Shown: piece by piece, positions 2,486 through 62,965 of the stretch
How the letters are laid out: each line of letters starts with the position of its first letter
Position numbering within the stretch: the first letter of the stretch is position 1
DNA from: Moniliella sp. 'wahieum'
Taxonomy: Eukaryota
Direction: 5' to 3'
NCBI GenBank assembly: GCA_003971905.1
Contig: RSEE01000016.1
Coordinates: 62,001-126,000 of the forward strand
Length of the DNA stretch: 64,000 nucleotides
Notes under the pieces: model-generated
Told to the model about the DNA's origin: nothing
The model's input: the letters and a program-made list of their open reading frames with translations, nothing else
Database searches by the model: none
Position numbers and translations under genes: made by a program

Positions 2486-2487
2486 AC

Positions 2488-4758: not shown

Positions 4759-5104
4759 GCATCATGCATGCATCATGCATCATGCCTCGTCTGTCCAGCG
4801 GCCACCGCCTGCGTCTTCCACGTCGCCCCGCCGCCTCCAGGAACCAGCGCGGGCAGCCCGGCCGGCCAGGCACGGCGCCAGTCGCCGCAAACACTGTTTT
4901 TTTGCTACATTGCAAATCCATCCCGAGATTAGATCCGCGCATGCTCAGATCGATCGGCCATCATGCATCATGTATCATGCATCATCGACCACGCTCCCAC
5001 CATTCGCTTCTCCGTCGGGGTTATTGCTGGGCCTTGGATCCATACACATGTCCCTCCCACCAACAAACAGGCAGGCACTATCATATCTCACTAGTCACTA
5101 GTCA
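4759..5104. repeat. 7-bp TCA+palindromic-core arrays (cores TGCA, TCGA, CTAG)
   Basis: 4768-4785 (ATGCATC)2ATGC; 4961-4988 TCA-TGCA-TCA-TGTA-TCA-TGCA-TCA-TCGA; 5081-5104 TCA-TATC-TCA-CTAG-TCA-CTAG-TCA. Confidence 0.85.
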
Positions 5105-5175
5105 CTCCTTCCCCAGCCATCTCGTCTCTAGTCACTTTGTCATAGCCACCCAGCCACCCACAATGCTCTGCGCTC

Positions 5176-6350
5176 TCAGGCCGTCGCCTTGGTCAGCCTC
5201 TCCACCTGCTCCAGCACTGCCCGCTTCGACGTCCCCCCCACCACGTCGCGGCGCTCGACCGACGTGTCAAACGACCACACGTCCATCACGTCCGCCGTGA
5301 ACAGCGGCGACAGCGTCTGCAGGTCCTCCAGCGTCAAGTCGGTCAGCTGCACCCCCCGCTCCTCGGACATGCGCACCGCCTCGCCCGAGATGTGGTGCGT
5401 TTGGCGGAATGGGACACCCTTGCGCACCAGGTACTCAGCCAGGTCGGTCGCCAGCATGTCGGGCGTCAGCGCCGCACGCATCTTCTTGGGGAAGATGGTG
5501 AGCGTCGATACCACACCTGTTGCAATCTTGAGCGAGTTGGACACGGTGCTGACCGCATCAAACAGCGGCTCCTTGTCTTCTTGCAGATCCTTGTTGTACG
5601 TAGATGGAATGCCCTTGAGGGTCATCAGGAACCCACTCATCTGCCCAAACACACGGCCGCTCTTGCCACGCAGCAGCTCAAGCGAGTCCGGGTTCTTCTT
5701 TTGCGGCATGATGGACGACCCCGTGCTTCATGCGAGATAGGTTAGTCCTTGGCCTAGCAGAGACAATCGTATATGGAGACAGAGGGGGTTAAACGTACGA
5801 GTAAGCATCGCTCAACTGGATAAAGCCAAACTCGGCACTTGAATAGATGATCAGGTCCTCAGCCATCTTAGACATGTGGATCATCGTAAGGGAAGCCCAC
5901 ATGAGGAACTCGGCAACAAAGTCGCGATCCGAAACCGAGTGCATCGAGTTAGTGCCAACAGTTTCGAACCCAAGCTCCTTGGCCAAAAAGTTGCGATCCA
6001 GCTTGGAAAAGGGGTTGCCAGCAAGAGGACCCGAACCCAGGGGAAGGACCGAAATGCGCGGAATCAGGTCGCGGAGACGGTGGTAGTCATTCGCAAAGTA
6101 GGTGGCATGCGAGAGCAAGAGGTGAGACCAACGAATAGGTTGGGCACGCTGCAAGTGGGTGTAGCCCGGCATGAGCGCATCCACTTCGCTTGCCGCACGC
6201 TTCAGCATCACATCCAAAAGCCCCTTGAGCGATGAAGTGATGTCTCCAATCGTGTCGAGCAACCAAAGGCGCATGTCGGTTGCCACTTGGTCATTGCGGC
6301 TTCGGCCCGTGTGTAGCTTGCCAGCCACAGGACCAATCAACTCCTTGAGC

Positions 6351-6382
<32 letters not shown>

Positions 6383-6640
6383 GTCCGGAGCCGGCTTGAA
6401 GGTGCCCTTCTCCCACTCCTCTCCTACCTTTGAAAGTCCATCGACAATTTGCTCCGCCTCGCTCTGGGTTAGGACACCAGCGCCAACAAGCGCCTTGGCA
6501 TAGGCCTTCGAGCCACGGATGTCTTGCGACCACATGCGCTGGTCATACGAGAGCGACTGGTTGTACTCGTGCATCAGCGGATCGGTGCGGCCAGTGAAGC
6601 GGCCACCCCAAAGCTTCTGCTTGGTGAATTCCTCGGTCAT
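5176..6640 (-). CDS. ARG4: Argininosuccinate lyase
   Basis: [51 protein letters not shown] and the fumarase-family signature [14 protein letters not shown], reconstituted across intron 5726-5798 (GTACGT...CTAAC...AG). Also [13 protein letters not shown] and [13 protein letters not shown]. Confidence 0.98.
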
Positions 6641-7349
6641 GTTTGAAAGGGCTGCGGACGGGTGGGAGAAGTAGAGAGGTGGCGGTGGGGATGGACGGTG
6701 GGGATGGTAGGAAGTCAAAGGAAAGAAGAAAAAATACGCTGGCCTTGTCGGACTATGTAGGAAAAGCGGCCGATGACTGGATGACAGTGGCTGTCCGTCG
6801 AGCGCGTCCAGCGCCCAGCGCAGCGGACTTGATTGCGGCGGATGAACCCAACAGCGCTCTCGTGCCCACCGCCTTTTTTTTCTCCGTTCGAAGATCGGCA
6901 TTCTTGCGAGGCGGCGGGCACGGACAGTCCGGAAAGTTTCATAATTTCTAGTTTCTGCTTATCGATTATCGATTCGATGATCGCGGCTGCCCCACTGGAG
7001 CAATCAATATCAAGGCGGGAGTTGGTGTGACGTGGGCGTGATGACTTGCCTAGGCTGGTGCCATGGCTCAGGGGCCCTAGGCTCGTTCATACCATAGCTC
7101 GGTGCGCGCCCCCCTTTCCTGCCCTGCTCCTTCTCTGCCGTTGGTGTTCTGCCTCTCACCACCGCTCCGCTCTTCGCTTCACTCATAACCTTGCTCCCGC
7201 TCTCCTGTGACCGATTGTCTGGCCACATCTCCTGTAGACTGCTCGTCGGAAAGTGCCCTGTTCCTCGACACAACAGAGTTACATCAATATCCTAAGCCCC
7301 CTGAGGACAGGGCGGATGATGGACAGCATGGATGCGGTATATATATAGA

Positions 7350-10004
7350 CTACAACGTGGGCGCAATGACCCCGAACACATCCATCGAAGGGCCTGTGTG
7401 GACTTCCTTCTTGGAGCGGCGCTTTTCTTGACGATCAGCTGCGCTCATCCTCTCGTGGCGCTTCTTGAGTCGCTGCGAAACGTCCTTGGCATACTTCTTG
7501 GCTGGCCCATTGGTGAAGCGAGTGATCATGTGCATCGCATCGCCACGGGTGATTTGGTCAAGGCCCAAGTCGTGATAGCTCTCGGGGGTCAGGCCGAGCC
7601 GCTTGGTAATGAATTTGGCCTGGCCGTCGGTCATGGGACTGGAACGCCAGGGCGCATCGCGCAACATCATCCTGCGGGAAACCCCTCCATGAGCCGAAGC
7701 AAAGGTGTCGCATGCCCGAATCGCCGCCTCCAACTCGTAATGCGCCACAATGCGCGTTGGCCTTGCATGGCGCGTCCTTTGGCCAGGCACCGTGACTTGG
7801 CGAATAAACGTACCCAGCCAAGCTAAAAATAATCGGCATGGTCAGTAAAATCCAAAAGATCAATTGGACGTACCAGGTGGACGGTCAATTTTGGACATAT
7901 GTCGACTACCCGATCTCCCGTTTTGCTTCTCCTCCCCTTCCTCTTCATTCTCGACCTCTTCCTCGCCCAATTCATCGGGAATAGCGTCTGCACTTGCCTC
8001 CAACCGAATCCGTCCAACAGAAGGGAGGTTGAGAACGTATGTGTCGTTGCCACAATCGGTCCAAGCAAGTCGCGAGGCGCGTAATATGGGGCTGTGGTGC
8101 TCTTCTTTCAAATCAATCGCTTCCTGCAGCGATGCGACCGAATCATAGTCAGTCATCGTCATCTTCTTGGGCACTTCAACGACAAAATCGGGCTGCTCAG
8201 GTTCCACCGTCTCAGATGAAGAAAGCGCAGGCAATGCTTCCTCTTTGCGTTGTCTCTGGGCATCCCTGCGTGCCATCAGCTCTTCCAAACTGGCTTGATC
8301 CATCTCATCTTCTGGATTCAGACCGAAAAGTGTCGGAGCACATACCGCCCCTCTGGCCCCCTCAGCGGCTGAAACGTAGTCCAGCACCAAACAATCCACC
8401 TTCCCCGTTTCCGGCGACTGGCGCGTGCCGCGTCCAATCATTTGTTGGTACCGTCCTTGACTGCGGGTGGGACGCGCAATCAACACACAATCAACGGGTG
8501 GAATGTCCGTTCCCTCGGTAAACACACCACAATTGACTAAAACAGGGAACTCGCCCGCACGAAAGCGCTGTAAGAAATCGGCCCTTTCTGCCGACCGGGT
8601 CATGCCATCCACGCCAAACGCAGGGACGCCAGCCTGACGAAAAGTCCACCACGCGAGCGACATGAGAACGGGTGGCACAAAAGACCAGCGTGCTCCTGCG
8701 GCGGTAGCGTCCACTTGTGTCTCCCTCCACCCGCTCAGGTAAGTTCCAACACCGATAAAGCCAAGTCTTGACCAGAAGTTTATTGAGCTCAAAGCTGTTG
8801 AGTACTTGGTCCATACTGTTCATGGTAAAGTCGCCCTGACCGTCCTGGGTATCAGGTCGATTGGCCTTGGAGATACGCAAAGCACTGAGGTTGAGGTGCC
8901 CCCGAATCATAGTGAAACGTAAAGGTGCAAGGTGCCCCAAGCTCATCAAGTCGATCATGCCGTTGTGGTATACAATTTTTTCAAACACCAACCCCAATGC
9001 CAGGCCATCGCTTCGAGTCAAAGTGGCGGAAAACCCAATGAGGGGGGTATTGTACTCCACACGAGGCAGGGGGGTATTGTACCCCTCACGAGGCATGGGG
9101 GTGCGGATGGACGTGGCTGTGTCGCCCGTCTGGTTGCGGTTCCGCAACGCAGGGTGAAAGTACTCAAGGACATGCATCCATGTCTCGGCGCAGGCATGAT
9201 GGGCTTCATCGATCACTACCGCCTTGAAACCAGCAGGGTCAAACTTGCTCAGTCGAGCCCCTTCCCTGGCTGCCAGGGTGGCGACAGTGGCGACCGTCAC
9301 ATCAGCCATGCCTGTAGACTCATTCCTTCCTTGCTCCACCTCCACCGTAAGGTCCGGATGGGATCGCGATACGGACATGGCGGTCTGTTTGGCAATTTCA
9401 ACCGAAGGAACGAGAATCATGACTTGCCCTCCCCTCAGGTATTCCCGCCCAGTCCAGGTGGTATCATCATTGTTGGTACGGGAGGGGATCTGTTTTAGCA
9501 GAGTCGAACTGGAGTCGGCAGTCAGCACCATGGTTCCAACATAAACGGAATTGCGTACAAAATGACCGTCTTTCCACTTCCAGTGGGAGCGCTGACAGCT
9601 ATCCTGGTCAATCCATCCGCCAAGGCACCGACACAGGCATCGATGCACTCCGATTGGTACAGGCGCAGCTCAACGAGCGAGGGAGGAGCCTGCTGCAGGG
9701 AAGAGGCAATATGTTCTTGAGCATTGTCTGACCGTTGTTTTTCTGACAGCCCCAGCGGTTGCCGGGCTTTGCGTGGCCGACCCCTCTTTTTAGGAGACGT
9801 CTCAGGCACCAGTTGATCCTCTGAGGGCTCCAATGGAAGCTGGACTTTGCGTGGCCGACCTCTCTTCTTGGGAGACATCTCAGGCACAGAGACAGTAGCT
9901 GTGCTCAACATACGTCGGGGAAGCAGCTCTGACTGCGATATCCATGTCTGACGAAAGAATTGAGGGGATGCGAAGACGCGATATGCTCCGCGGAGCCAAG
10001 CCAT
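7350..10004 (-). CDS. IRC3: IRC3-like mitochondrial SF2 (DExH) DNA helicase/translocase
   Basis: Arg-rich presequence-like N-terminus. Q-motif LRLYQSEC, Walker A APTGSGKT, DEAH, FSAT, LVFC, LVNCGVFTEGTDIP.VDCVLIARPTRS, QMIGRGTR and the Irc3-type C-terminal ..DAPWR..PMTDGQ.. segment. Introns 9509-9558 and 7823-7873; frameshift near 8640. Confidence 0.85.
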
Positions 10005-10323
10005 CGCACGGCAACGGCGGCCAAATGTACTTTGGTGGTGGTGGCGGGAAAGGAGTGCTTGCAGCTATCGCCGTCCTTGAAATTACGACCAGTATCCGCA
10101 GTCGGTGCAACGCACTTCACGCGTTCACTACAGGATTTGGACAGTTGCTATTTCTGCACTCAGCCTCTCAGGTTCCTCGGGCCTCCTCATTCCCACCTAT
10201 ACGCTGAAGGTGGGCTCACAGCCTCGTTTTTACACAACATCATATTGGCTTGATGTCAAAATTGGGAAATATTTTGATGGAAAAAGAGTGCATGAGTATG
10301 TAGTAGTAGTACATGCCAGTTGA

Positions 10324-14633: not shown

Positions 14634-16058
14634 TCAATCCCAAGGAGAAGGTGTGCTCAGGTTTGTGCTCGCTTCCGTATCGGACGGCGTCTCAGGAGAG
14701 AGAACTGAACGATCCTCTTCTTCGTCTTCAAATGCTAACGAGCTGGTAGAGGAGCACGGGGACGGTGGCGTGGGACGTCGAGTACAGGAGCCATGCAGTA
14801 TCGGAACCGTCGTAGTAGATACCGTCATGGTCGAATCCACCTTTTCTTTCTCCTGGGGGGCGGGTGTAGTGGGATTCGCTTCAACCGGAGGAAGTGGGGT
14901 GCAGGGGTGGGGAGAAGGGTTCTTAGCAGAATCCTCCCGCACCACCGTCGTTTGTTGGGACGGTGAGGCGTCATCAGCTACCGTCGACCTATCACTCATA
15001 CTTGTGATGGACACGAAGGAAGAACGTGGAGAGAGGTTGCCATCGCTCTCCTGTTTCCGTGAAAATTGGGGGGCAATGGGAATGGGGTTGTCAGACCCAA
15101 AAGCGCTGGGCGCGGCGACGGTGGGTGGGGCAGCAAACAGGGATGACTCTGGGCAAATGGGGAAGTGAGTCGGACCACTGCTGGTAGGATACGGACCGAT
15201 TCCACCCTCTTTCCTCATCACAGACACCTCTTCCTCATCGGTGGAGCTTACGCTGAACCGAGATCGTGTGGCATGATCCGATGGGGATGAAAGCGGATCG
15301 GCGCGGCGGTGTGGAGAAGCCTGCACGGTTGCATCCTCCCCACCCGTTGAATCTTCCCCTAGGGCATGGGCAAAGGCAAAGTGCTTGGCTTTAGCCGCCT
15401 GATCGACCTCAGAACCTTGAGAGGAGAGGGAAGAAGGAGGATCGGGATGTGAAGGATTTGACGGGCAGGGACAGTCGATGCTTCCGCTCCGAGGGAGGGG
15501 GTATTGATGGAATAGGCGCGTTGGTACTCAGCCAGCTGTTGTTGCAGTTGGCAGACATAGTCTGTACCCGAATAGGCATCGGTTAGCATAGATCGAAGAG
15601 AGAGAGAGGAGAAAACGACAGAGAGAACGCACCGTATGTGTGGGAGATGATGCAGAGTTTTTCGAGCCATATCGCTCTCGATGCGACTCGTCATTTCGGC
15701 CATGGCCACTCGCCGAGCTGATCGCTGTCCTCCGCGTTGTTGTGGCAGAGGCAGAGGCGGAGGCAGAGGCGGGTTGGGCTTGGGCGCGGGCGCGACGTTG
15801 GGCAGTGCGACGACGGGAAGGAGGAAGGGGTTTGGCCCGGAGCACATCGAGCGCCTCGGCATAGCAGGCTGGCACGAGGGTCTGGAGGGGGTGAGACGCT
15901 CGTTGATCTTTTCGCGGCGGCGGCGCTCGATGAGCGAGTGGTCCGTCTTGCGCTTCAGCACGCGGGACTTGCGCGGCGGCGGGGGGGCGGACGGGGGCGC
16001 GTGGGCATGGGTGGAGGGGCGTGGCGGGGGTGGGTGGTGCCGGGGGGCGGTGGGGCAT
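14634..16058 (-). CDS. bHLH transcription factor
   Basis: Basic region/helix 1 RKTDHSLIERRRREKINERL..LQTLVPAC. Helix 2 ..KLCIISHT^DYVCQLQQQL across intron 15562-15632. Long Ser/Pro-rich C-terminus. Frameshifts present and start uncertain. Confidence 0.85.
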
Positions 16059-19895: not shown

Positions 19896-20234
19896 AACGG
19901 TGGCGAGACGAGATGCTGCTGTCGTCTGCATCTTCCCCCTTTCCATGCCAATGCTACATGCCATGCTCTCCTGTCTCCCACGCGGGGTTGGTGATGAGCG
20001 GTTCTGCCCCCATCAAGTTGGGAAAAAAAGGGGGTTATGTAGGCTCAAGTAACGAGGCTGAACCGCCGGCACGGCGGGTCTGTCCAGGGAGATGAATGCT
20101 AGTGAAGACAAAGCCATCCATGGGACGATGAGCTCAAACACGAGGTAAGCGAGAAAAGGGATACAATTTAAGGGGAAGAAAGGGGAGGAGAGGAAATAGA
20201 CAACTGCCCGAGACGCCTGTGTACAGCATGACCA

Positions 20235-21908
20235 TCAGAGCCGTTTCAACGGACTCTTACCACCATCCAAAAACCGCTCCATGTTCCATGGCCCCGACAC
20301 GCGCGCTAACGTGTGTGACCGGGACGTGGAACCAGGTTCGATGACGTAGGGAAGGCCCGCTACTTGGTTCCACCACGGTTCGGCTTGCGTCGAACCCGAG
20401 ACAGAGAAGAACGAATCGTGATGCAGCGGCGAGGGGGGGAAAGGAGTATCCGAGGGGATGAGGGTACGCTCTTTGGCAAGTTGGGAGAAGAGGAACATGG
20501 TATGTCGTGCCGCCGACTCGAGCAAAGGCTGGCTCGCATGGCCTGTGCGCAGGAGAATCGCCGCGTTCACCTGCTCGGCGAGAGCAATGCGCCGACGATG
20601 GTCAAGGTACCTGTGAGCCGGGCTGTTCTTCGGGTCAGGGTAGGCCAGGAGCACCGAGACATTCTCAATCTCGCGAAGGTAGCTAGCCTTGGCTTTGACG
20701 TCGTCCAGGCGCTGACAGGATGCATGAACGTTCTGGATATAGCGCAGCGCATCATGAATCGCATTGTTCCGTGCCCGCGCTGCTGCTGCCTCGGGCCCAG
20801 ACAGATTGTGACTTGGCCCGCGGAGCCGGCGGCGACATGGCCACTCGGTGTCAGACTCAATGCGCTCTCGCTGCTTGCCACACTCGAGGGGGCCGGTGAG
20901 GTAGCTCGGCTGCCCGTTCGAGATCCCGATGAACGTAAGCCGAGGAAAGCGGATGGGAATGGTGCAGAGCCGATGGAGACAAGGTGCTAGTCGGGTCAAG
21001 CGGACTGGTTGACCCATTCCCCGCGCCGTTCCCAGCTGCGTTGTTGGCACTAGCACCTGCCGGGGCGGGGTTGGGCTGAAGGCTGCTCGCGCGGCGGATC
21101 GTCTCGATAAACTGCTGAATGTGAAGGTTAAGCTCAATATGGGCTGGATCAAGGCTGGTGGGGTACGAAGGTAGGGCAGGCTGCCCAGACTTGGCCTTGG
21201 CCGACGGTTCTGCGGTCGGTAGGGTGCTTCGATCGTCCGGAGCGCCGTCCTTGTTGAGGCTGCTGATGAGAACGCCAGGAAAGAAGGAATTGATGCTCTC
21301 CATGGCAGCCTGGATATTGCCTTGGTGGATAAAGTCTTTGATTTCTGTGAGACGGGAGACGGGAAACGGCGACAGATAAGGCTGGTCAGTGGCGGGGCGG
21401 GGCCGAGGCGGGGAAGGGAGGACTCACGTCGCCTGTACAGCAAGGCTGTCATCCCTCAGGGGTCAGGTCGGTGCCCTGCACGGCAGCTGTGGTAGCGTCA
21501 ATCTTGGCCTGCAACGCGGGGTCGGGACAGGCGGCTGACGTGGTATCGGGGGCGGCGTGGGACGTGGCCAGCGGGTGGCGTGGACGGTCGGACGTGGCGG
21601 CGGCGGGACGAGACCGCTTGGCGGGAGATGTGGCTCGGCCGAGATGGCGGAGGCGTCCTGGTGCACGCCGGCGCGAGCGAATGCAACGGCGGTGTCAGCA
21701 TAGGACTGGTGCACAAGATAGTCCATCACGAGGCGGCGCAGCGCAGTGGGGCTCAGCACAGCATCGGGCGTGGTGGAGGCGGGGACGGGGGCGGGGGCAG
21801 AGGCAGAGGCAGAGGCAGCAGCAGAGGCAGAGGCAGAGGCAGAGGCCGGGAGCGTGGTGGGGGCGCGTACGTGCGTGCGGACGACAAGGGGGGTGCTCGG
21901 GAGCTCAT
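20235..21908 (-). CDS. LisH-CTLH-CRA domain protein (GID8/Twa1-like, GID/CTLH E3 ligase complex)
   Basis: LisH LRRLVMDYLVHQSYADTAVAF. CTLH EIKDFIHQGNIQAAMESINSFFPGVL...ELNLHIQQFIETIR. CRA LLAYPDPKNSP..YLDHRRRIALAEQVNAAIL. Intron 21345-21427. Confidence 0.85.
21797..21846. repeat. (GCAGAG)n hexanucleotide microsatellite encoding poly(Ala-Ser)
   Basis: gcagaggcagaggcagaggcagcagcagaggcagaggcagaggcagaggc inside the GID8-like CDS. A shorter run of the same unit lies in the bHLH gene at about 15744-15770. Confidence 0.9.
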
Positions 21909-28334: not shown

Positions 28335-28424
28335 TGAGATCTGGATCTGGGCCGAGAGATGCGTGACGCGTGACGCGTGTTTTATTGGTCACCACTGCGT
28401 ACTGAGTTCAGTACTGACTAGTGA
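28335..28424. repeat. 7-bp TGA/TCA+palindromic-core array in a divergent promoter
   Basis: TGA-GATC-TGG; 28364-28379 TGA-CGCG-TGA-CGCG-TG; 28408-28424 TCA-GTAC-TGA-CTAG-TGA. Confidence 0.8.
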
Positions 28425-28727
28425 CTCCAACCGCTCGGACACCCCGCAGTAGGGTTGGGCGATCGATGATCGTTTGGCACGCGCATTGGATGCGGCGCAC
28501 GGGGACACTGCGTGGGCCGCGGCGCAGGCGGCGGGGCGTGTGTTCGGGCTGATGCGGCGTGCGACACTGGCCACGTGCCCGTGCGCACGCCAAGGCGCGG
28601 TGCGGGCGTGGTCCCTGGGCGCAGCACGGGGGCCGCTGGGCCGGCGGCCATGTCCCCCGCGAGCATCTCCGCCAACGCCCCGACAGCCCCGGCGCGCAGG
28701 CTACGTAGCAAAACCAGGTAGCTGTGC

Positions 28728-34950: not shown

Positions 34951-35257
34951 GTTGATGGGGGCGACGTAAAAAAAGATTTGACATGACCTGGGTTCGTTCT
35001 GGCGAGAGGGCGGCTGTTTGGTTACGTAACACGTGCTGGCATTTCCAACTGGCCTATTCTCTCTCCGTGCAGGGGAGGGCACTGGAGCGATACGCTCCAA
35101 CAAAGAACGCAATTGCTGATTGACTGACATGCTGACACCTGACCCGCCTGGCGCGTGACCCATGATCAGAACTGACCCTTTTGGGTTGGCCTGCCCACCC
35201 TCCCTATTTGGAGCATCCCTTGCCCCGCACTGCACTTCCTGCGGCCCACCCTCCATC

Positions 35258-39240: not shown

Positions 39241-39257
39241 GATGGTGGTGGTGGTGG

Positions 39258-40640
39258 ATGAGTACGATCGATGAGTATTGGATGATCAATTAGAGTGGTG
39301 CGGGGGATCGATAATCGATGAGCGCTTTTTAGCCATCTTTGGACAACTGCTGCTGTGCCCCGCTCCTGTTTGAAAGTTTGACCTGGTCTGTGCGCATAAG
39401 CGGGTGTCTGTACTGCGTGGAGTGCTGCCCGCTTGTTTCGATCCGATCAATCAACATCAATCGTCTCGAAATTGAAACCATTGAACATGAAACTTTTGAC
39501 TGCCTTGCTCTACAAATGACACGAATCCAAAGAAAATGATTGATGCTGCAATGGCATGCACGTGCCCTATGGACTTCCCACAGCAGCGGAGCTAGGCGCT
39601 AGCGACATGTGCTAAGTACGAAGTACTCACTTTACGTACTCGTGCACTTCTCGCCTCTAGCTTGTTTCAAGCTTCAAGCTTCACGTTCTGCAAGCCTCAA
39701 TGAGGCCTCAGGTCAACGGTCACCGGTCAGGCCCTGAGGCTCAGGCCTGAGGCTCAGGGCTTTACATTCACATGGATCCTGAGCTTAAGCCTCAAGCGCT
39801 TCTCAACCCTGTGATGCATGTGAGGCCGAACGAATTAGAAGAGCAGGATATTGGAAACTGCTGCGCCATGTGGTTGGGGAGGCACACATAGTAGGTGGCA
39901 TACATAGGGACCGCAGGTCAACGAGGTCCTCACTATGTATTGGCGCGTACATCAGGGACTATTCTTTGATGTTGATAGCATGCACTGATTAACTGATTGT
40001 GCTCTTGGAGAGGCGGACGGACAATGGATGATGTCGCGGATGCATAGGTGAGAGCAATGATTAATGATCGATGACTTGATGACCCCATTTATTGAATCTC
40101 AGATCGATTCAGATCACGGTTTGGGCACTTGGGCACTGGGGCGTTTGAGTGGCGTTTGACGCGTAACGTGCGACACTTTGGAAGCTTGAGAGCTCGAAAC
40201 AGGGCGGTTGAGGCCTCCAGCGCGCGGAAGATTGGGTGGGGCAGCACTGCTGCACAACGCCCTGACGTGTGACAGGCATCAGCAACCTGCACCGACCCGC
40301 CCAATTCGGTGCTGATCATGCCCCTGACGTAAATAGACACTGGCGCCGTGCGCTCCCGAGTGGGGTGCACTGGCCACCAAGACAGCCCTGGCAGCTGGAG
40401 GAACGTACGAGCTGGGGGCGCCGCAGCGCAGCTTGGAGCTCGGAATTCAAGTCTGAGAGATCTGAGATCCTGAGATATGAGAACTGAGATATACTGCGGG
40501 CTGAAGCGCCGAAGCGCTGAGCGGCCGAGCGCCGAAAAAAAAAGCTGAGCTTCTGAAGCTTCAATTGAACGTCGGGACGCGTGATAATCACACGAGGCTT
40601 GAGCTTTAGCGCTTGCGCTTCGCTTAGCGCTGGGCCTGCT
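39258..40640. repeat. Cluster of 7-bp palindromic-core arrays in a long divergent intergenic region
   Basis: 39307-39326 ATCGAT-A-ATCGAT-G-AGCGCT; 39667-39683 TCA-AGCT-TCA-AGCT-TCA; 39713-39757 TCA-ACGG-TCA-CCGG-TCA-GGCC..TCA-GGCC-TGA; 40058-40074 TGA-TTAA-TGA-TCGA-TGA; 40455-40490 GATC/GATA cores; 40554-40563 TGAAGCTTCA. Confidence 0.85.
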
Positions 40641-50434: not shown

Positions 50435-50940
50435 TTTTGCATCCTGGATATCCATCCTTTTCATCTCGGCGGGTGGGAACGTGCGGGCGGAAAGTAGTCA
50501 AAAAGTGTAGCTGATGTTAGCTCATGTGGCCGCGAAGAATCTCCAAGTACTATTAGTAGCAGCTGGGCCGTTTACGCCTCCAAAAGAGGGTTGCCAGCCA
50601 TTCTAAAAAAGCAATAAGTCGGTCCAGTGCAGGCGAGTTGCAGCCCAGGCAACGGCAATTGCCTATCCGCCAGGTTATACCCCCTCGCCCATTCCTGCCC
50701 ACATGTGGCCAGTTGCGCGGCGGACAAGCCGAAGTGCCGCGACTGCAGGAAAACGCAGAGCGCGGAGAAAAAACAGCTGTGACGAGCTAACCAAATTTCT
50801 AACTCGCCTCGTGCCTTGGCGGAGACAGGTCTTTGAAATTGGGCCCACCACTCCCTTCAAGCTTCAAGCAGGCTTCAGGTGCGGATTATTGGGCCTGCTC
50901 CTCCTACCTCCAACCACCTCTGTTGCGCCCGCTCATCACC

Positions 50941-51944
50941 ATGGCCTCAAATCTACTTGCGAGTGAAGACCTTAACAACCGGATGCTCTTTGCCATCCCC
51001 AAAAAGGGTATGTTTCCTTCCTTGGGCCAGCTGGGAGCGGTCAGCTGACGCATGAGCGGCAGGGCGGCTGTACGAAAAGTGCCTCGCGCTTTTGCAGGGG
51101 GCAGATGTGCAATTCAAGCGACAGCATCGGCTTGACGTTGCGCTGGTGCAGAACTTCCCCATGGCGCTTGTTTCCTTCCTGCTGCCGACATTCCTCGCTT
51201 TGTGGGCCTCGGTAACGTTGATCTCGGCATCACAGGCCAGGACATGGTGGCCGAGAGCGGACCGGCAATTGCGTCGCGGGTGACCGAGGTGCTTCCGTTG
51301 GGTTTTGGCAAGTGCAAGCTCCAAGTCCAGGTACCAGACCCATCTCTGCAGCCACGCGGCAGCGTCGCGGCGCAGGGCCCAATGAAGACATTGGAGGACC
51401 TGGTCGGGTGCCGGATCGCCACATCGTTTGACCATTGGCTGGCGCGTACTTTGCCGACTTGGACAAGCGCGTCGCTTCGGGTAAGCAAACCGAGATTCAG
51501 TTCATTAGCGGCAGTGTCGAGGCTGCATGCGCATTGGGCATTGCCGATGGCATTGTGGACCTGGTGGAGAGTGGAGAGACGATGCGCGCCTGTGGCCTCG
51601 CGCCGATTGCGACGCTCCTCGAATCGCAGGCCACGCTCATTCGTTCCGCCCAGCCCCACGCGCGCTCGGATACAAAGCTGATCAACCTCATTACCAACCG
51701 GATCCGCGGTGTGATCGCAGCACAACGCTACGTGCTTTGCACCTACAACATCACCAAAGCCGACTTGCCTGCACACTCGAAATCACCCCCGGCCGGCGGG
51801 CAGCGACAGTGATGCCGCTTGAGGATGAGACGGAACGCCGTATCGGCGATGATTGTGCGCTCGAGGCAGCCACCATCATGGACCGTCTCGAGGCAGTGGG
51901 CGCATCCGACATTCATCACCACCATCGCCAACTCGCGGGCGTAA
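50941..51944 (+). CDS. HIS1: ATP phosphoribosyltransferase
   Basis: RMLFAIPKKG^RLYEKC, RQHRLDVALV, GNVDLGITGQD, LGFGKCKLQVQVP, RIATSF, SGSVEAACALGIADGIVDLVESGETMRACGL, ITPGRRAATV, ..TIANSRA*. Intron 51008-51062. Confidence 0.95.
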
Positions 51945-52093
51945 AAGGAGGTTTGGAACCAAATGCATACATGTTGGCTGTCTTTCCAAAGGCACCTCGT
52001 TGTTTACATTTCCAGACAACGTGGACAAAGCCTGCACCTGGGATCTAAAGAGTTCGGGGAGGGTGGGGTGCAAAGGTATCTTTTAGTTTTGGT

Positions 52094-54587
52094 CTACCTG
52101 TGAAGTAGCATAGCTACCAATGCCAGCAAAGTACAGCCTTGCAAGCCCCGGTGAAAGGCAGTGCCGATACGATGGGCCTGGGCCAAGCGGCGCGGAGAAG
52201 GACGACGAGCCGGGCGAGCTTCCTCAATCAGTTCCGGATCCCATTCTTGCCCCTCCCTGCCCGGCCGCCCACTGTTCTGCGGCCGAACGGAGCAGGACAT
52301 GGACGACTGTGGAGGCATCCAAACCAGGAAGTGGCAGGCCATTGAGCAAGGCAAGCGAGACGGACGTTAACACGAAATAGCCGGCACCTAGTTCGAGCAA
52401 CATCAGCCATCCATCCCACGTAGCGTGCGGGAGGGGTAGTAGTTGAGTCCATTTTCGAGCCACGTAGGGCGACACGGTTGTCCCCCCAAGGCGCTGCTGG
52501 GATCTCCAGCAAGCAAGAGCGTCTGGCTTGGAATTCCCTCGTTCGAAACCGCGGCACTGGGGGAAAGGAAGTTGATCCGTACCAAAGGGACCGTTGGGAA
52601 GATGCATTCCCCTTTCCGGCGAGTGGTGCACATATCCGAGGTTTGGCACACCTTACCGCCAAATTGCTCAAAGGGGGCTGTGCGCCAATAGGGCCAGTGC
52701 GTTCACTCCGCGCATCCGACCTTGTCTGTCGCTGAAACATACATCGGATCCTTGAATGGCCGAGCCGCGGGAGCACGAATGCAGCAAGGAAGTGTTGGTG
52801 CCGTTGCTGGGCAGGGGGTCGGGCGCAAATAGGTCCGAGCTGCCCGTGTCCGCATCTGCGTAAGTCTCCGAGGGTGCAAATAAATCTTCCCCCGCAGCGT
52901 CAGGGGCTTCTGATCCAGGTTTTGGCCTGCAGACTGGGGCTGTGGTGCCCAGATGGACGAAGCGACGCACCATCCTCTTGTCTCCGTGGAGGCAAAGATG
53001 GCCTGGGCATAGCTTCAAGTCGGTCCCCAGCTGAGGGGATGCGACCCGAGGCGTAAAACTTGGTCTCCTCCACCGAGAGAAGGACACTGCCTACACCCAA
53101 AACAGGAGCAGCCTGTGCCAAAGCAGAGCCAGGGTCGACTTTTGCAACGCGGAGTCCGCCCTTGGCATCACATGTAGGTCCTAGCCCGCACTTCCCCGTA
53201 TCCTCATCTGATGAGGGCAATGCGGCGGTAATGGGGTCCTTGCTCCATCCAAAGTACCGCATCATTGCAGCAACGCCACCTTCGGCACCACCAGGAAGGT
53301 ACATGCCCGCCCGGACTGAGCGGACTCCCGCCAAGAGTGAATGAGGCAAAACCAACGCCCCAGGCCTAGGGGCAAACGAGGTCGGTACACCCACCACAGC
53401 AATGAAGAGGAAAACCGAGACAAGGTTAGCTGCCACCCCAGCACCAAGGATGCGAAGCTTGTGTCGCAAGGCCAATCGTGACTCTTTCCCCCTTCAAACA
53501 GGGTAGGGGGGAAAACGACAAACGCGGCGACAAGCCAGCCGGGGATGGGAATCCAGACGCCCAATGCTCGAGGAAGACACTCATCTTCTTCTCCCTCCCA
53601 CTCGGTCTCCTCTCTCCGCTGAGCACGACGGCTGAGGTAAACTGATACCGCAGCCAAAGCGTGGCCACCCACCTCGGATGAGCTGGGCCCCAAACAGGTG
53701 ATGAGCAAAAGGGTGGTGTGGGAAAAGGGTATGGTCAAGCCGGGGATGAGTGGGACAAGGTGCACGCCACCCGAACTAGGGGCAGCGGGTTCAGCAGCAG
53801 CGGCAGCATCGCGCGCTTGGCGAAGACGTCATCATTGTTCTCGGCCACGACAGCATCGCCTGCATGGTTCGACGGATGTGGAAGTAAACGGCGCTCAGGA
53901 GTTGTTGTAGTGCAGGCAGAGCAAGATGCCCAAGACACAGACACATGGCGGCCGACCAGAGCAGCGATACAACGGCTGCGATGGATGTGGCCGTCGTAGG
54001 CCGCGGCTAGATGAGAGACAGGCGAAGGGAGTGGGCGAAATGGGCAAGCCAGGCGTGATGAGAGTAGACTCAACATGGATGCTGTTGAAGGACAAGTGCA
54101 AGGTTGTGTTGGATACCGGTACAGGTTCAAGAGCAGGTGCAAGAACGGGTGAGCTGGAAGGCAGGGCGGAGGCGGAAGAAAGGCGGTCGTGGGCGCGAAG
54201 CGTGTTGCGACGTGGACGCGTGGAAGGGGTGGAAGCAGGAGCGTTGGCAGTGGTGCTGGTGCTGGCGGGGCGGTGTTGCTACTGCTGGAGGAGAGGGGGA
54301 GCAAGGGGATGGTGGCGGAGGGCTCGCCGTCACTGCCCCTGCCCAAGGGACGCGGTGGGTCCATGTGCGGGTCAGAACCTCGGTCCAGGTGGGCGGGGCA
54401 GGCCGTGTGTGGCGGACGACGAGACGGAGGGCGGGTGGGATGGTGGCGGTGGAGCATCGACAGCGAGGGCGATGCCGCCGCCGTGCCGCTGCCGGGCGGG
54501 GGCAAGCACCGCCCGCAGCAGCGCCTGGGCCACCAGCCACGGCGCCAGCGCGACGGCGACGATCCACACCAGCGTAGCGGCGTCCAT
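52094..54587 (-). CDS. Site-2 protease (M50 intramembrane metalloprotease)
   Basis: Hydrophobic N-terminus MDAATLVWIVAVALAPWLV; LVPLIPGLTIPFSH; Zn motif region QLI(H)EVGGHALAA at about 53661-53682; KLRILGAGVAANLV; third-ligand motif SLALLNGLPLPGLDA at 52317-52343. Frameshifted. Confidence 0.8.
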
Positions 54588-57995: not shown

Positions 57996-58603
57996 ATTGC
58001 CCAACTAGACTGCCTTACCTGGATTCATGTTCATACGTGTTTTGCGTTTTGATACTTTTGGTACTTCTATACTACCTCTCGCTTCGACTTCTCGCCCATC
58101 TAACTACTTTTTCATGCCTCTTCTCCCTTCTTCCCTTTACCGGTTCTCATTTCTCTCTCCCCCTCCCTGCTCTACCCCTGCGCATCAGATTAGCTACTGT
58201 TGATTTTCCTATGATCTCTCGCCGCCATATATTGCCGCCAAGGGTCAAGTTGAAGTACCCCTCCTCTGCAAGAAGACGAAAAGGGGAGAGCGGTTGTTGG
58301 CCCGGAAATGTATGATTTTGACTTCCTCTAAACATCATGCTGCTTTCAATCGGCATATAATAGTGGAAACGAATGTACCCTCTATAAAAGTTCAGGTGGC
58401 AGGACGTTCGTGAAGTTAAAGTCACTTGCAATGTGCTGAAAAAGTCTGTGAGTCTCTCACCACTGTTTTCATAACGAGGTTCAAGCATCCACGACCGTAG
58501 ATCGTTGCTTGCTTCTTCGGTTGGTGTGATCTCCTGTGCTAGCTTTCCGGCCCCTCTAACATGGAACGGTTGCCGCTACGCGCCACGGGCTACGGAAGCC
58601 CTT

Positions 58604-58800
58604 AAAGCTTGATGCTTGAGGCAAGCCCCCCGAGGTCTGAGGCTCAGGCCTGAAGAACGCGTAGCGCGTAGCGCTTCCTTGCTCTACCGCGCGCATGCGC
58701 ATTCGTATATTCTCACTGCGTACGCGTGAACGCGTGAACGCGCTCTCAGATGTCAGATGTCAGATCTGATCGATGATCGATGATCTTAGATCTCACGTGC
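58604..58800. repeat. 7-bp palindromic-core array cluster
   Basis: 58746-58783 TCA-GATG-TCA-GATG-TCA-GATC-TGA-TCGA-TGA-TCGA-TGA; AAGCTTGATGCTTGA; TCAGGCCTGA; (ACGCGTGA)2ACGCG. Confidence 0.85.
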
Positions 58801-59288
58801 TCAGGCGTCCCAGCCATGCGGTGCGAGAGGGCCAGCATCATGTATCACTAGAAGACCACCGGGCCTACGGCCCGGTCAGCTGGGGCTTCGCCCCAGCTTG
58901 GTGTGCTTGGTGTCCCAGCCTTAAGCTCTGTCAATGGAATGCACACAACAAGAAGGGAGATGCATCATCTTTTAGTTCCATACGCGAGGGTCCATCAAAA
59001 AGTGTGCAACCCTACTGCTCCCCGACCTGCCATGACGGGGGGGGCTGCGCCAACTATCGGGCATATGACAGAGTCGCGTCGACGCGTCCCTCTCCACCCA
59101 CTTAAAATGCCCCCTACCCGTACTCACCGCCAGTGCCCCCATTGCGGCACCAACGACTACACTGGCACACGGTGCCCCTTCAATCCACTCCCACGTTTGT
59201 GCCCCCACGGCCGTCGACCTGGCTACAAGGCTGCCGCGGAGCGGTGGAGCAAGGAGGAGATGTGGAAAGCAATTGGGGTCTTTGCGAC

Positions 59289-59428
59289 AAAAATAAGGTG
59301 GGGGAAGGACAAGAAGAGGGGGGGGAGGACAAGAATAGGGGGGGGAGGACAAGAAGAGGGGGGGGAGGACAAGAAGAGGGGGGGGAGGACAAGAAGAGGG
59401 GGGGGGGACAAGAAGAAGGGGGGACAAA
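59289..59428 (+). repeat. Purine-rich minisatellite of about 20 bp, AAGAAGAGGGGGGGGAGGAC, about 6 copies
   Basis: Units start at 59311, 59331, 59351, 59371 and 59391, with degenerate flanking copies; each carries a G8-G10 run. Confidence 0.95.
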
Positions 59429-60489
59429 GGGGATTGGTGGAAGGATGGAGTAAGGATGATCGATGGTCCAGAGGTGGCGGGCTCGATCCATGTAACGTGA
59501 ATTACGACGACCCTGTCGCAGGCGGGCCCTGCCAGGGGGCTCACTCAGGTTGGTGGGGTACAGTCCCTTACGTGAAAGACGGCTCACGGTAGTTTCGAGC
59601 TTGGGCTATCCGAGCGAGGAGGAGAAGCCTTTGGGCGTGAAGCCGAGGCGGCTGCACGCGTGGCAAAAGGCTGCGTATACGCCGGCTGGAGGGTAGTAAC
59701 GTGTCTGAAGCCTCCGGGGCTGAGAGACGGGTAGATGCAGTGGAGCGGACAGACACTGCCAGGGCTGAGAGGCATGATGGCAGTGGTTGTCAAAGGAACC
59801 CACGCGACATGTTGTGGTATGGAGAACCGACGCGGCTGATGGACGGCTCGCGCGACTGGGCAGATGGAAAGCTGGAGGACGAGGTTGGATGATGAAGATG
59901 ATGCAGCTAAGTGGAGACGAGAGGTTGCCTGTATTACTGAATCAATTGGCTGGAAACGTTCAGGAGTTGGACAGGAAAGGCGGGAAGGGACGAGAACGGA
60001 AGGTGGGAAAGGATCCCCACCAATCGAGGATGCTGACTGTTGGTTGGCCCCTTTTGGTAACCCCTTCTGTCTAAGCCCCGCACTGGGATAGATGTTGACA
60101 GAGCGAAGCAGACGAAGCTGCTACAGAGTGCGACTTGGGAGCATTCGCGATCCTATGGATGAGCTGCAAAGCAGCCTTCAGACAGGCGTGAAGGCAAAGG
60201 GGTGACCACAAGTCTACAAGCATCTGAAGGAAAGAAGGCAGGAGAGAGAGAAGGGAGATGGAGCGAGCAGGGCGTGCGCGGCCTGCGAGCGGAACTCTTT
60301 CGACCGGCTAAGCGAGAGCGTCACCGATTCACTGAGGGGTGCAGGGGAGGCCTAGCACTACCACCCCAATAGAAGCAAGCGGAGGCTGCGAAGGGGCTAA
60401 GAATATCATCCGATAGCACTTCCTCGTGTGACATGGCGCGTCAGCACTCAGCGCGGCCGTCGTTTACCTCCTGGTACATATTCATACCT

Positions 60490-61010
60490 CTCAGAGATCG
60501 CATCAATCTCAGATCTCGAAGGTTCAGTGCTTTGAGTACCAAACGTACCAACGCCGAGTATAGTACTGAGTTGCTCAGGACGGAGTTATACTGAGTCTTC
60601 TCACATCTGAGAACTACTCTCAGTGTACAGAGTACTGTGAGTACTGAGAGTACTGGATTCTGGCACTGCATCCCGCCGGGAAGCAATGATGGGATATGGC
60701 CACAGCGTTCGATATTCGTATCCTCTTTCAATATTCCATGTCAAGTCTTCAAAACAGCTTCACATCCTTGAAACCCTTCATATGCTCTCAAGTTCAGCCT
60801 GGCCAATTCCAGGTATAGCGCTGATCGATGATCGATAGTCGAGAGTATCGATCGATTATCAAAAGCGAGATCCAAATTCCAATGAAGGAACGCTACCAGC
60901 GTGAGTTTAAATGACCGCAAAACGTTTTAAGCTGTTACATGTTACGTGTTTTATATTGTCCAACGTCCAATCCCCTGTAACTAGGTTGCTAGTTACTAGT
61001 TACTTAGTTT
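60490..61010. repeat. Palindromic-core arrays (GTAC, TCGA, CATG, CTAG cores)
   Basis: AGTACTGTGAGTACTGAGAGTACTGG at about 60631-60656; TGA-TCGA-TGA-TCGA-TAG-TCGA at about 60822-60842; TTA-CATG-TTA-CGTG at about 60935; TTG-CTAG-TTA-CTAG-TTA at about 60986. Confidence 0.75.
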
Positions 61011-61867
61011 ATACGTATAGGCCGCGAGTTGCTCATTGTGTATGTGCCCCCCTTCCCCCCCACCATGGGGAGTCTACTCTGCGATATATCGATTATCGCA
61101 CTCACTGATCCGGAGGACGGGATTCAATTTATCAATGCGGCACCCGCACCCACACACTTAAGAGTGCCCTCTTTGTGTTTTCGACGTCCACGATGCATGA
61201 GGCGGCGAGTGAGTATGCAAGAGTGTCTGTGAGCATGTGTATGGTGTACGAGAAGGGCCTGGGAGTTTGGACGTTTGCCGATGCTCGCATGTTGCCCCTC
61301 CCGCCTGGGTATGCTCGCTCTACGTCTCTCTGCAATGCATATATGGTTCCCGCTTATCGAGTTAATGATCATCCTCTTGAAACGCCGAGCTTCAGCAGCC
61401 TGATGCTTTTTGATGGGGCAATGCACGATACCTGTCTAACCTCTCCATGAGCCATGAGCGTATGAGCTCCATAGCTTGCTGAGGGAGGAGAATGGAGGAT
61501 GTGTGTGACGCCTAGTGGTGCAGCTGGCCCAAGTCCGGAACCTTCTGGTTCGTTCCGTGTAATATCCAGGAAAGTATTCTCTAGCCTCCGTAGCTCATGT
61601 GCAATGCAATACACTACCAACTGCCTGCTCTCTGGTCTGTAACAATGTGGTTCTGAGGAGAGGTACGGGAGCTTTAAGAAGGGTAGGGCCTTATACAGCC
61701 GAGGGAACCGCGGAGCAGAGGGAGCATCCCAGCGGATAAGAGGGGTGATGCCTATCACACGCAGGAGAGGGCGTGATTGGGGCATTGCCCAACATATGGC
61801 TTTTCATTTTGCATTCTCGCTGTTTCCTTCCGACAGAGGATCCAATGGAGCAGAACCTGCCTGTGCT

Positions 61868-62965
61868 ACGCGTTAAGCCATAACGCGTAACGTTTAATGT
61901 CAACATGTAACAGACATCCGGTGATCGGATCCGCTTTCCCTAGTAACTAGTAACTAATAACAGGTGACCGGTGACTGGTGACGCGGTGACGCTTGAAGCT
62001 TGAAGCTTGATGCATGATGCATGATGCAGACGCGGGACTAGTGACCAGTGAGTGACTTGCGATGTGTGGCCCCACGTGGTCGGGACCGCGGGACCGGCGA
62101 TAAATTCACGATTTGATGGACGAGAATCTGAGGCGCTGAGGCTGCTGGGCAAGGCCAACCCTTCATGGCGTGGGGCCAGACATTTGATTGGTCCGAATTG
62201 TGGTCCGGACATTTGAGATGTTGTGGCTTGACGTAGTGGGCCAGAGTGAACCAGGTGAGGGCGTTGCGGAGTTTGCCTCCTCTGGCAAGTACCAAGTTAG
62301 CGGGTAGCATCAATGTTAAAGAGCGTTGGCCCAGTGCGCTACCGATGTTTGGCGCCTATGTATGGGCCAGAGCCCCCACCGGTGATGCGTGCGAGCTCTG
62401 TCTGTCATCGGTGTCACCGTGTCACCAGGCACCGGTCACCTGTCACCAAGTACACAGACCGGAGACAGCGCCCAGAACATTGATCATCGACCAAACCACG
62501 TGGTACAATATAACCCAAAGTAACCGGTGACTACTGAGTACTGAGTACTGATTAAATTACTGATTAATGATTAAGTCGATTAAGCTTAAGCTTTAAGGAT
62601 TAACGATTCGTGACGCGTGACCCATGTTTCGGGACAAGCAGGGTGCGTCAGGCGTCACTCGTCACGCATGTATGGTCTCAGATGTGGTTCACCCGGTGAG
62701 CGCTCAGTGAGCTCAGCGCTCAGCCGGAAACGGTTACATGCAAGTCATGCACTGCTGCAGATGCATCATGCATCACCTGCATCAACATCATACGCTCCAT
62801 GCATTCTCCACACCATACCCATACATCACATGCATCACACATCAGCCACCCCAACCTATCTGACCGCAACGCTGGTCCCCATCGCCACGGATGGAGCTGA
62901 GGAAGGGAGCAGATGGTAGGGCCAGCCATCAGGCCTGAGTCAGGCCTCAGGCCCAGGCCTCAGGA
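61868..62965. repeat. Largest cluster of 7-bp TGA/TAA/TCA+palindromic-core arrays
   Basis: About 16 near-contiguous heptamers at 61940-62051; further arrays at 62405-62448, 62521-62620, 62697-62724, 62759-62790 and 62929-62964. Confidence 0.9.

Follow-up and report, generated by a model that had tools for sequence, protein, structure and literature searches.

What process writes or reads a palindrome in a fixed frame while its sequence stays free? This question is raised by a stretch of 64,000 nucleotides from the fungus Moniliella sp. 'wahieum' (contig RSEE01000016.1, positions 62,001 to 126,000), which we call the window and number from its first letter. Its non-coding DNA repeatedly contains the trinucleotide T-N-A followed by a self-complementary 4-bp core (pal4), in units of 7 bp. 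A first-pass annotation had pointed to this pattern in eight clusters, and had proposed either a cis-acting code or the trace of a mutational or templated process. All eight clusters are present where it placed them, as judged by reading the sequence and by Tandem Repeats Finder (TRF), and are detailed in Table 1. We show here that the pattern of T-x-A and a free 4-base palindrome is strongly non-random, and we then weigh what may have produced it.

A free palindromic core between fixed T-N-A trinucleotides

When two TGA trinucleotides are separated by four bases, these bases form a palindrome 18 times out of 36, against a mean of 0.7 and a standard deviation of 0.9 over 30 dinucleotide shuffles. 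For TCA the count is 15 of 40 (30 dinucleotide shuffles: mean 1.2, standard deviation 1.3), and for TTA 4 of 9 (shuffles, 0.1). TGA and TCA together thus frame 33 palindromic cores, compared to about 2 in dinucleotide shuffles, and the excess that the first-pass annotation had expected is borne out. With all trinucleotides pooled, the four bases are palindromic in 125 of 1653 cases (7.6%). If only the outer bases of the trinucleotide are considered, T.A-N4-T.A sites hold a palindrome in 57 of 157 cases (36%), against 3.3-10.1% across the 15 other X.Y classes. Among these 57 sites, the middle bases of the two T.A are GG in 18, CC in 15, CG in 5, TT in 4, GC in 4 and AA in 2, the rest being other mixed pairs. 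The length of the spacer is critical: 57 palindromes are found for k=4, where 9.8 are expected, a weak excess is seen for k=5 (14 vs 6.5), and no palindrome enrichment was found between T.A pairs of the window for k=2, 3, 6, 7 or 8.

The cores themselves are diverse. Thirteen of the 16 possible 4-bp palindromes are used, roughly evenly: AGCT (9), TGCA (8), TCGA (8), GGCC (6), CTAG (5), CGCG (4) and GTAC (4), then the rarer GCGC, CCGG and GATC (3 each), TTAA (2), ACGT (1) and CATG (1). AATT, ATAT and TATA are never used at the T.A-N4-T.A sites of the window. Read as 6-bp palindromes of the form A....T, the twelve hexamers listed in the first-pass annotation are all in use, and AACGTT has to be added to them. 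Consecutive palindromic hexamers located 7 bp apart are of the A....T class in 19 cases, compared to 1 for C....G, 4 for G....C and 1 for T....A. The units are also copied head to tail, as in any short tandem repeat. The window contains 32 exact tandems of period 7 and at least 14 bp, besides the rows of period 7 reported by TRF, and 19 of the 32 hold a 6-bp palindrome (18 A....T and one GCCGGC).

The elements are rare under long open reading frames

Gene models in the window are our own rough reading, with no annotation behind them, and the start and stop positions given in this work follow from that reading. As a proxy for coding DNA, we used the longest stop-free frame covering each site; it replaced a codon-usage mask and a filter on the GC content of third codon positions, which were both poor discriminators. 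Classified by the length of this open reading frame (ORF), the density of matches is 17.0 per kb below 60 aa, 2.9 between 60 and 100 aa, 2.5 between 100 and 150 aa, 0.46 between 150 and 250 aa, and 0.04 at 250 aa or more, keeping in mind that the proxy wrongly classes some non-coding DNA as ORF-rich (for instance 4759-5106). This means a single match in the 27.4 kb lying under ORFs of at least 250 aa, compared to 45 matches in the 12.7 kb lying only under ORFs shorter than 150 aa. The scarcity in coding sequences, noticed by eye in the first pass, is therefore confirmed by this proxy.

In ORF-poor DNA, palindromic hexamers of the A....T class number 109, against 42, 44 and 32 for the remaining three classes, and the base at position -2 is a T in 56 of the 109, the base at position +2 an A in 66. 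ORF-poor T.A-N4-T.A sites hold 45 palindromic cores, 26 cores with one mismatched pair and 18 with two, where random sequence would give proportions of 1:6:9. The elements are dense in four zones, at 39.26-40.64, 58.6-58.8, 60.44-61.0 and 61.88-62.97 kb.

Anatomy of units, runs and chains

The autocorrelation of T-S-A in ORF-poor DNA reaches 52 at lag 7, over a background of about 20, falls to 28 at lag 14 and is flat from lag 21 on. The 7-bp phase announced in the first pass is thus clear at lag 7, weak at lag 14 and absent further away. A decayed long satellite was rejected on the same ground, since no periodicity is seen past lag 14, and the elements are sites rather than satellites. Single perfect units (TNA followed by pal4) are not enriched (200, compared to 171 ± 14 in block shuffles); perfect chains of two units or more are (15 vs 0.32 in block shuffles). 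The minimal form is the 10-mer TNA-pal4-TNA. Isolated A....T hexamers of ORF-poor DNA are flanked by T.A on both sides in 26 of 85 cases, for about 5 expected. Counted by hexamers per element, some 21 singles are above chance, and chains of 2, 3 and 5 hexamers occur 10, 3 and 1 times, respectively.

The lengths of the 33 exact 7-bp-periodic runs that include an element were then examined. Two runs are 10 bp long, three 11 bp, five 12 bp, five 13 bp, four 14 bp, three 15 bp, two 16 bp, one 17 bp, one 18 bp, four 19 bp, two 20 bp and one 21 bp, and none of the 33 is longer. Two peaks appear: 10 runs measure 12-13 bp and 6 measure 19-20 bp, compared to 4 runs at 14 bp and a single one at 21 bp. 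Eight of the 33 runs stop once the first half-core is completed, for about 1.5 expected from chance extension (estimated by hand), and 8 of the 33 begin at the second half of a core. A matching half-core continues into at least one flank in 31 of 47 elements, where chance would give about 12%. Going outward over the four core positions of the expected next unit, the identity of the flank is 60%, 61%, 46% and 36% (72 flanks). As this identity declines outward, the elements appear to be embedded in decayed copies, which points to turnover.

Different palindromic cores follow each other in phase in eight of the 15 perfect chains. In 6 of the 8 cases where neighbours have different cores, these are one complementary pair apart, as AGCT and TGCA are (random expectation 40%; binomial p of about 0.05, computed by hand). 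A series of about 14 units lies at 61881-62028, where the cores come in the order CTAG, CTAG, CTAA, CAGG, CCGG, CTGG, (C)GCGG, CGCT, three AGCT and three TGCA. Between 61.94 and 62.03 kb the phase is constant, while the core drifts from CTAG to CCGG, AGCT and TGCA through half-matching intermediates.

Three looser traces had been reported in addition to the clusters. Two of them are variants of the pattern: a 6-bp palindromic spacer with a period of 9 at 22376, and a single AAGCTT beside a near copy at 30181. The third, at 35.1 kb, is an irregular run of CTGAC/TGAC (35100-35180) upstream of a GH20 gene, and falls outside the 7-bp grammar.

A possible origin by strand switching

Which kind of process would leave such elements? 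The answer that we favour, tentatively and at slightly less than an even chance, is that they are mutational products whose dyad symmetry is built in by strand-switch or hairpin-type copying at T-N-A. They would be very short (10-24 bp) insertions or duplications with a period of 7 bp and a fast turnover, and not a sequence code. The event would start on a T-N-A followed by two bases, x1x2, where copying switches strand or a hairpin-type end opens. The switch would write the reverse complement, x2'x1', and re-alignment on the same T-N-A would lengthen the sequence by 7 bp, to TNA-x1x2x2'x1'-TNA-x1x2, with a dyad included. Once two units are present, ordinary slippage could add or remove units, and later strand switches would alter the two half-cores at once. 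Such insertions would be purged from coding DNA through the frameshifts and stop codons that they bring, and would pile up in intergenic DNA among their decayed remains.

The main argument comes from the cores: because their self-complementarity is exact while their sequence is free, base pairing is the likely device that writes or reads them. Free but palindromic cores are expected from copying by base pairing, and are hard to reconcile with base-specific reading by a protein. Strand switching predicts run lengths of 7n+5, whereas a clean tandem duplication predicts 7n. That inverted copying occurs in this DNA is indicated by a 31-nt inverted duplicate, 422 bp away from its partner. A generative process fits the 7n+5 runs, the boundaries at half-cores, the decayed surroundings, the paired core changes and this inverted duplicate, and the sharp dependence on a 4-bp spacer and the strong depletion in long ORFs were counted in its favour as well. 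Moreover, the elements are tiny and look young: periodicity is restricted to lag 7, the longest exact run measures 21 bp, and 100% identity is frequent among the runs. The part of the first-pass proposal that invoked a mutational or templated origin is favoured by the anatomy (13 free self-complementary cores, decayed copies, runs of 12-13 and 19-20 bp, and 6 paired changes out of 8). A single template-switching event is described, in the portions of the papers available to us, as able to generate perfect stems as well as compensatory changes, and an interstrand form of it acts in place (PMC8794818); stems and compensatory changes of this kind also appear in the accessible parts of PMC5453318 and PMC3820800.

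A number of observations weigh against this explanation. Strand switching would allow any X-N-X', yet the A.T, C.G and G.C classes are at background and T.A alone is used. This restriction, the exact 4-bp core and the clustering near some promoters are left unexplained by a mutational model, and they keep alive the alternatives of cis-regulation and of break scars discussed below. That T.A alone and a 4-bp core alone are used implies a factor, either polymerase, nuclease or repair enzyme, with both sequence and geometry specificity. The half-core boundary signal is weak: the drop in conditional match after position 2, from 0.72 to 0.52, is not significant. The test for compensatory pairs is based on 8 cases only. 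In the inverted duplicate, imperfect units are kept in both copies (61960-61990 and 62413-62443), which have accumulated two point changes; a fast, ongoing repair towards palindromes, as suggested in the first pass, finds no support in these shared imperfect units. Finally, the elements are spread unevenly over non-coding DNA. Some 870 bp at 61010-61880 and most of positions 1-3000 are nearly element-free, three putative convergent gene ends (20093-20237, 52046-52226 and about 37000-37920) contain none, and several arrays lie shortly upstream of start codons. One further putative convergent spacer has just two lone 10-mers, at 13677 and 13879. This uneven placement, close to start codons, fits either a process targeted by chromatin or breaks, or a function.

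Weighing the alternatives

A function in cis would consist of arrays of dyad-symmetric sites, bound by one or several dimeric or multimeric proteins in promoters or nucleosome-free regions, whose duplications were selected. We consider it less likely than strand-switch copying, yet a serious alternative. Arrays are found upstream of the ATGs of HIS1 (about 75-90 bp), ARG4 (about 320 bp), the gene starting at 39241 (immediately) and the gene starting at 63126 (a cluster at 160-400 bp), and the elements cluster in parts of the non-coding DNA instead of filling it. Three units make 21 bp, that is two helical turns, and the self-complementarity of each unit despite different neighbours corresponds to a dyad where a dimer would bind duplex DNA, and not to a hairpin. 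ACGCGT, present in the arrays at 28361 and 58722, coincides with the MluI cell-cycle box, which occurs in clusters upstream of G1/S genes; it is one of the 13 cores used. This diversity is the main difficulty: with 13 cores about evenly used, no single base-reading protein fits, and a dozen paralogues sharing one frame would be unparsimonious. The decayed copies around the elements and their frequent 100% identity suggest turnover rather than conservation, and the cluster at 4759-5106 is just downstream of the ARG4 stop, where the next gene could face either way. ARG4 and HIS1 are classic co-regulated genes, but their arrays carry different cores, and TGASTCA, presumably the consensus of Gcn4-type sites, is absent upstream of both (6644-7300 and 50600-50941) and found 3 times in the window for 7.7 expected. 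A more radical version can be imagined, in which a lineage-specific factor reads T-S-A at a 7-bp spacing together with dyad symmetry, whatever the sequence, and marks or cuts promoters or nucleosome-free regions. We hold it to be improbable. If it were true, intergenic DNA would record the repeated action of one DNA-processing machine, and cores would co-vary as RNA stems do, but within duplex DNA.

The elements could also be scars of breaks made at T-N-A by a nuclease, a transposase-derived enzyme or a cut-and-paste transposon, leaving a target duplication and a small palindrome. The palindrome would be what is left of the element's inverted ends (2 + 2 nt), or would result when a hairpin-capped end is opened two bases off centre, as for P nucleotides. 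TNA-pal4-TNA has the geometry of a duplicated target, a 4-nt palindromic remnant and a duplicated target; the excess of isolated hexamers with T.A on both sides is what a duplicated target predicts, and the effect is strictly limited to k=4. A 5-bp duplication (TNA x1x2) with two hairpin-derived bases would even give TNA-x1x2x2'x1'-TNA-x1x2 and runs of 12 bp, and a bias for intergenic DNA and promoters is typical of many transposons and break hot spots. We are nevertheless doubtful of it. Remnants of inverted ends predict one or a few cores per element family, and 13 are observed; a hairpin origin predicts the mirror product, with palindrome N'ATN, equally often, and no such class is seen. Multi-unit elements, with 10, 3 and 1 chains of 2, 3 and 5 hexamers for about 21 singles above chance, are too common for independent events. 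No transposase, integrase or nuclease family was recognised at E <= 1e-5 among the 150 ORFs of at least 150 aa, and no TNA-flanked element with terminal inverted repeats was found in the window. To our knowledge, few fungal transposon families combine a 5-bp duplication with flank hairpins.

Very little speaks for a role through structure, in which the arrays would act as DNA hairpins or cruciforms, or as RNA stem-loops, at origins, terminators or boundaries. The arrays are admittedly quasi-palindromic at every scale, and a 5-bp stem capped by a T-S-A triloop can arise from two adjacent units; this was the typical fold when seven array stretches were folded as single-stranded DNA. The z-scores against shuffles are -2.1, -5.0, -0.35, -0.5, -1.6, -3.6 and -1.3, clearly below shuffles in two stretches only, the five others being no better or slightly better; the stable hairpins or cruciforms envisaged in the first pass are not supported. 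The period-13 array at 39727-39765 (z = -5.0, none of 200 shuffles as good) is the sole convincing palindrome among them. In mixed chains, units are self-complementary, yet not complementary to neighbouring units. As they pair only with themselves, the constraint concerns the dyad of a duplex site of 6 bp and not the stability of a hairpin: it lies within a 6-bp unit that is unable to fold on itself, and G....C and C....G hexamers, which would make more stable stems, are unused. With Rfam covariance models, the sole match in the window is a tRNA at 2388-2485, and the arrays match no known structured RNA. We give almost no credit, lastly, to an artefact of assembly, polishing or base-calling, or to foreign or vector DNA. 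The arrays are diverse, exact and limited to non-coding DNA, the surrounding genes read normally (an ARG4 exon is 81% identical to that of Tilletiaria anomala), assemblies made independently, with at least 119 metagenome contigs and 6 viral ones, contain identical 17-mers, and we know of no error mode that writes T-N-A and a palindrome.

Several more specific readings were tried and rejected. Basic leucine zipper (bZIP) sites of the AP-1/Gcn4 type are made of inverted TGA and TCA half-sites with 1 (or 2) bp between them; here the spacer is 4 bp, the repeats are mostly direct (33 with the same middle base, 9 flipped) and TGASTCA is scarce. Any T-N-A is a stop codon on one strand, so that the arrays might have served as three-frame stops, but TAG is not enriched and the array close to HIS1 reads TCA on the sense strand. 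A heat-shock-element reading of the AAGCTT arrays was discarded, as the spacing of such elements does not match. For topoisomerase II cleavage, the 4-bp stagger and the dyad fit the geometry, but fill-in would give 4-bp direct duplications, not palindromes. In the part of PMC6813358 available to us, etoposide-trapped topoisomerase II is described as preferring a C just 5' of the scissile bond, a preference that may be drug-specific. The base before the core is here an A, unlike this C, and the comparison is uninformative.

Comparison with known systems

Strand-switch copying would ally the elements with short template-switch or quasi-palindrome mutations, in which copying of the opposite strand creates or perfects short inverted repeats, possibly without a loop; as far as the accessible portions of PMC8794818, PMC5453318 and PMC3820800 describe them, these cases are isolated, affect arbitrary sequences and usually have a loop. 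Here, in contrast, a 10-24 bp form recurs dozens of times in 64 kb in one sequence class, with a fixed T-N-A, an exact 4-bp spacer and a 7-bp period. Microsatellites with self-complementary units share with the elements their short head-to-tail units, their non-coding location and the recurrence of one unit at unrelated loci. They differ in that the elements of the window are limited to about 3 units and use 13 unit types in one frame, different units abutting in phase; non-palindromic 7-mers are enriched about 2-fold, and the A....T class makes up 18 of the 32 tandems instead of the few percent expected. Bacterial intergenic heptamer arrays are also made of 7-bp units, with TGA in the units of some families, and consist, in the part of PMC4692102 at hand, of one fixed unit per family, in long or opposed arrays that form long hairpins. 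In the window, each unit is palindromic, cores vary, arrays have 2-3 units and a fungus is the host, so that we imply no homology. Neither the stable long hairpin nor the single unit per family of heptamer-array hairpins and REP-like palindromic elements was found, given the mostly weak z-scores and varied cores.

Excision footprints of cut-and-paste transposons, a duplicated target around a small perfect palindrome with an intergenic bias, look alike, but the cores are too diverse here, the chains too frequent, and no resident element or transposase was seen in the window. Palindromic repeats of Fusarium mitochondria are also fungal, and their units are proposed to be mobile or mutagenic; in the portion of PMC7218506 available, they are mitochondrial, have larger palindromic organisations tied to large indels, and show no T-N-A and pal4 grammar. 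An identity with these repeats was rejected for this difference of organisation and grammar. None of these nearest known kinds combines a fixed T-N-A, a free 4-bp palindrome and a 7-bp period with arrays of 2-3 units and with the use of one frame by many cores. Taken as a class, the pattern may best be called short tandem repeats born by template switching, with a minority chance of something categorically new.

To look outside the window, the 17-mer of one array was used as a seed. It retrieved at least 119 stretches from metagenomes and 6 viral ones, which amount to 551 kb, with full flanks for 80 loci. This control DNA has 182 period-7 tandems other than the seed, of which 8 (4%) are of the A....T class, 7 T....A, 6 G....C and 1 C....G. 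The A....T share is at chance level, as opposed to 18 of 32 in the window, and the multi-core grammar was found in none of the at least 125 seed-matched loci. The best of them (L067), with 4 palindromic matches out of 8 (p of 9e-4, uncorrected for 125 loci), was rejected after reading, which revealed no array grammar. The grammar is specific to this genome or lineage. Pure long ATGCATG arrays were observed in four metagenome loci (L120, L071, L054 and L113), with 23, 15, 12 and 7 palindromic-core matches. Since such arrays exist, the ATGCATG unit can expand far past the 3-unit ceiling of the window; arrays of up to 23 units are an ordinary expanding repeat, unlike those of the window. In open-access PMC and bioRxiv full text, we found no description of the T-N-A and pal4 grammar, in Ustilaginomycotina or elsewhere, and nothing relevant on the 7-bp repeat of Ustilago maydis mentioned in the first pass.

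If the elements are mutational, they would be a clean natural signature of a strand-switch or hairpin-type process, with its T-N-A anchor, 4-bp dyad and 7-bp gain, and a rare case of one mechanism visibly building a sizeable part of intergenic DNA. They would also offer a direct handle on the underlying copying or repair mechanism. If they are functional, symmetry and not sequence would set the regulatory grammar, unlike in known transcription-factor sites. Repeat surveys usually end at 6-bp units and would miss the pattern, and one regular expression is enough to look for it in any fungal genome.

Catalogue of the arrays

Table 1. Position and composition of the T-N-A and pal4 elements of the window
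Position	Element	Detail	Location
4759-4785	TCA+TGCA array	exact run 4767-4785 (19 bp), preceded by a doubling of the 4-bp core (TGCATGCA)	downstream of ARG4 stop
4959-4985	TCA+TGCA array	3.9 copies, 90%; last unit carries another palindromic core, TCGA	
5088-5106	TCA+CTAG array	19 bp exact; run stops after first half of next core	
6959-6974	TTA+TCGA array	16 bp exact	about 320 bp upstream of ARG4 ATG (minus strand, about 6643)
28361-28426	TGA+CGCG array, then GTAC to CTAG chain	array 19 bp exact; chain in phase, middle base changing from C to G	
39258-39325	ATCGAT / ATCGAT / AGCGCT chain	with related units	directly upstream of ATG 39241 (minus strand)
39666-39765	TCA+AGCT array, GGTCA-type array, period-13 array		
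40056-40074	TGA+TTAA, TGA+TCGA, TGA chain	in phase	
40457-40640	GAGATCT, GAAGCGC and AGCGCT types	degenerate, looser arrays	
50855-50869	TCA+AGCT array	15 bp exact	about 75-90 bp upstream of HIS1 ATG (50942, plus strand)
58603-58795	cluster with AAGCTT and AGGCCT elements	TCAGATG array; chain GATC / TCGA / TCGA	
58722-58742	ACGCGT+GA variant	8-bp period, joint of 2 bases	
60440-61004	looser cluster	TGA+TCGA at 60822-60836; TTA+CATG and TTA+CTAG arrays at 60933-61004	
60629-60655	AGTACT variant	9-bp period, joint of 3 bases	
61881-62028	TAA+CGCG element, then about 14 units	units share one 7-bp phase, with one 1-bp indel	
62413-62447	inverted copy of the GGTGAC-type array 61960-61990	94% over 31 nt, 422 bp away	
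62521-62621	chain and arrays	cores CCGG, GTAC (x2), TTAA (x2), AGCT, CGCG; TRF: at most 7 copies, 73-78% identity	
62697-62775	AGCGCT elements with mixed TGA/TCA	plus TCA+TGCA array	
62929-62965	AGGCCT arrays with mixed TCA/TGA		about 160-200 bp upstream of ATG 63126 (plus strand)

In the period-13 array at 39727-39765, TGA and TCA alternate around GGCC or GGC cores and form an overlapping palindrome. The chain at 39258-39325 contains two CGATGAG strings within the 85 bp upstream of the ATG at 39241; we take CGATGAG to be a PAC-like fungal promoter motif. The predicted product of this gene has runs of Lys, Arg and Gly, which suggests a ribosome-biogenesis gene.

Other features of the window

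The window is GC-rich (59%), intron-bearing nuclear DNA of an Ustilaginomycotina-like fungus. The ARG4 exon has 74-77% identity to Malassezia species and 91-93% to other assemblies, besides the match to Tilletiaria anomala reported above. Pfam families recognised in the window include ARG4, a helicase, a Brix protein, RRM proteins, GH20, Dopey and HisG, among others. The ORF at 872-1528 (plus strand) looks GH16-like (...GGEMDVFEG...), yet it has no Pfam family at E <= 1e-5; it sits in the AT-richer left end of the window, which is almost array-free. The tRNA at 2388-2485 (plus strand) scores 47.3 bits over 98 nt with Rfam and probably bears an intron; ARAGORN found no tRNA in the window.

Repeats of other kinds were also seen. 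In the helicase gene region, a 27-bp tandem repeat is present at 9041-9102 (2.3 copies, 91%), and two direct copies of 76 nt with 79% identity, 78 bp apart, lie at 9734-9887, between both helicase-domain ORFs; they may be a duplicated intron segment. A GGCAGA hexamer is repeated at 4128-4154, 15744-15770 and 21796-21846, with at most 8.5 copies, in GC-rich, ORF-rich DNA. Finally, a G/A-rich 20-bp tandem repeat at 59300-59423 (6.2 copies, 95%) is contained in the open frame 58852-59589 (plus strand), where it would encode a repetitive stretch rich in Gly, Arg and Lys.

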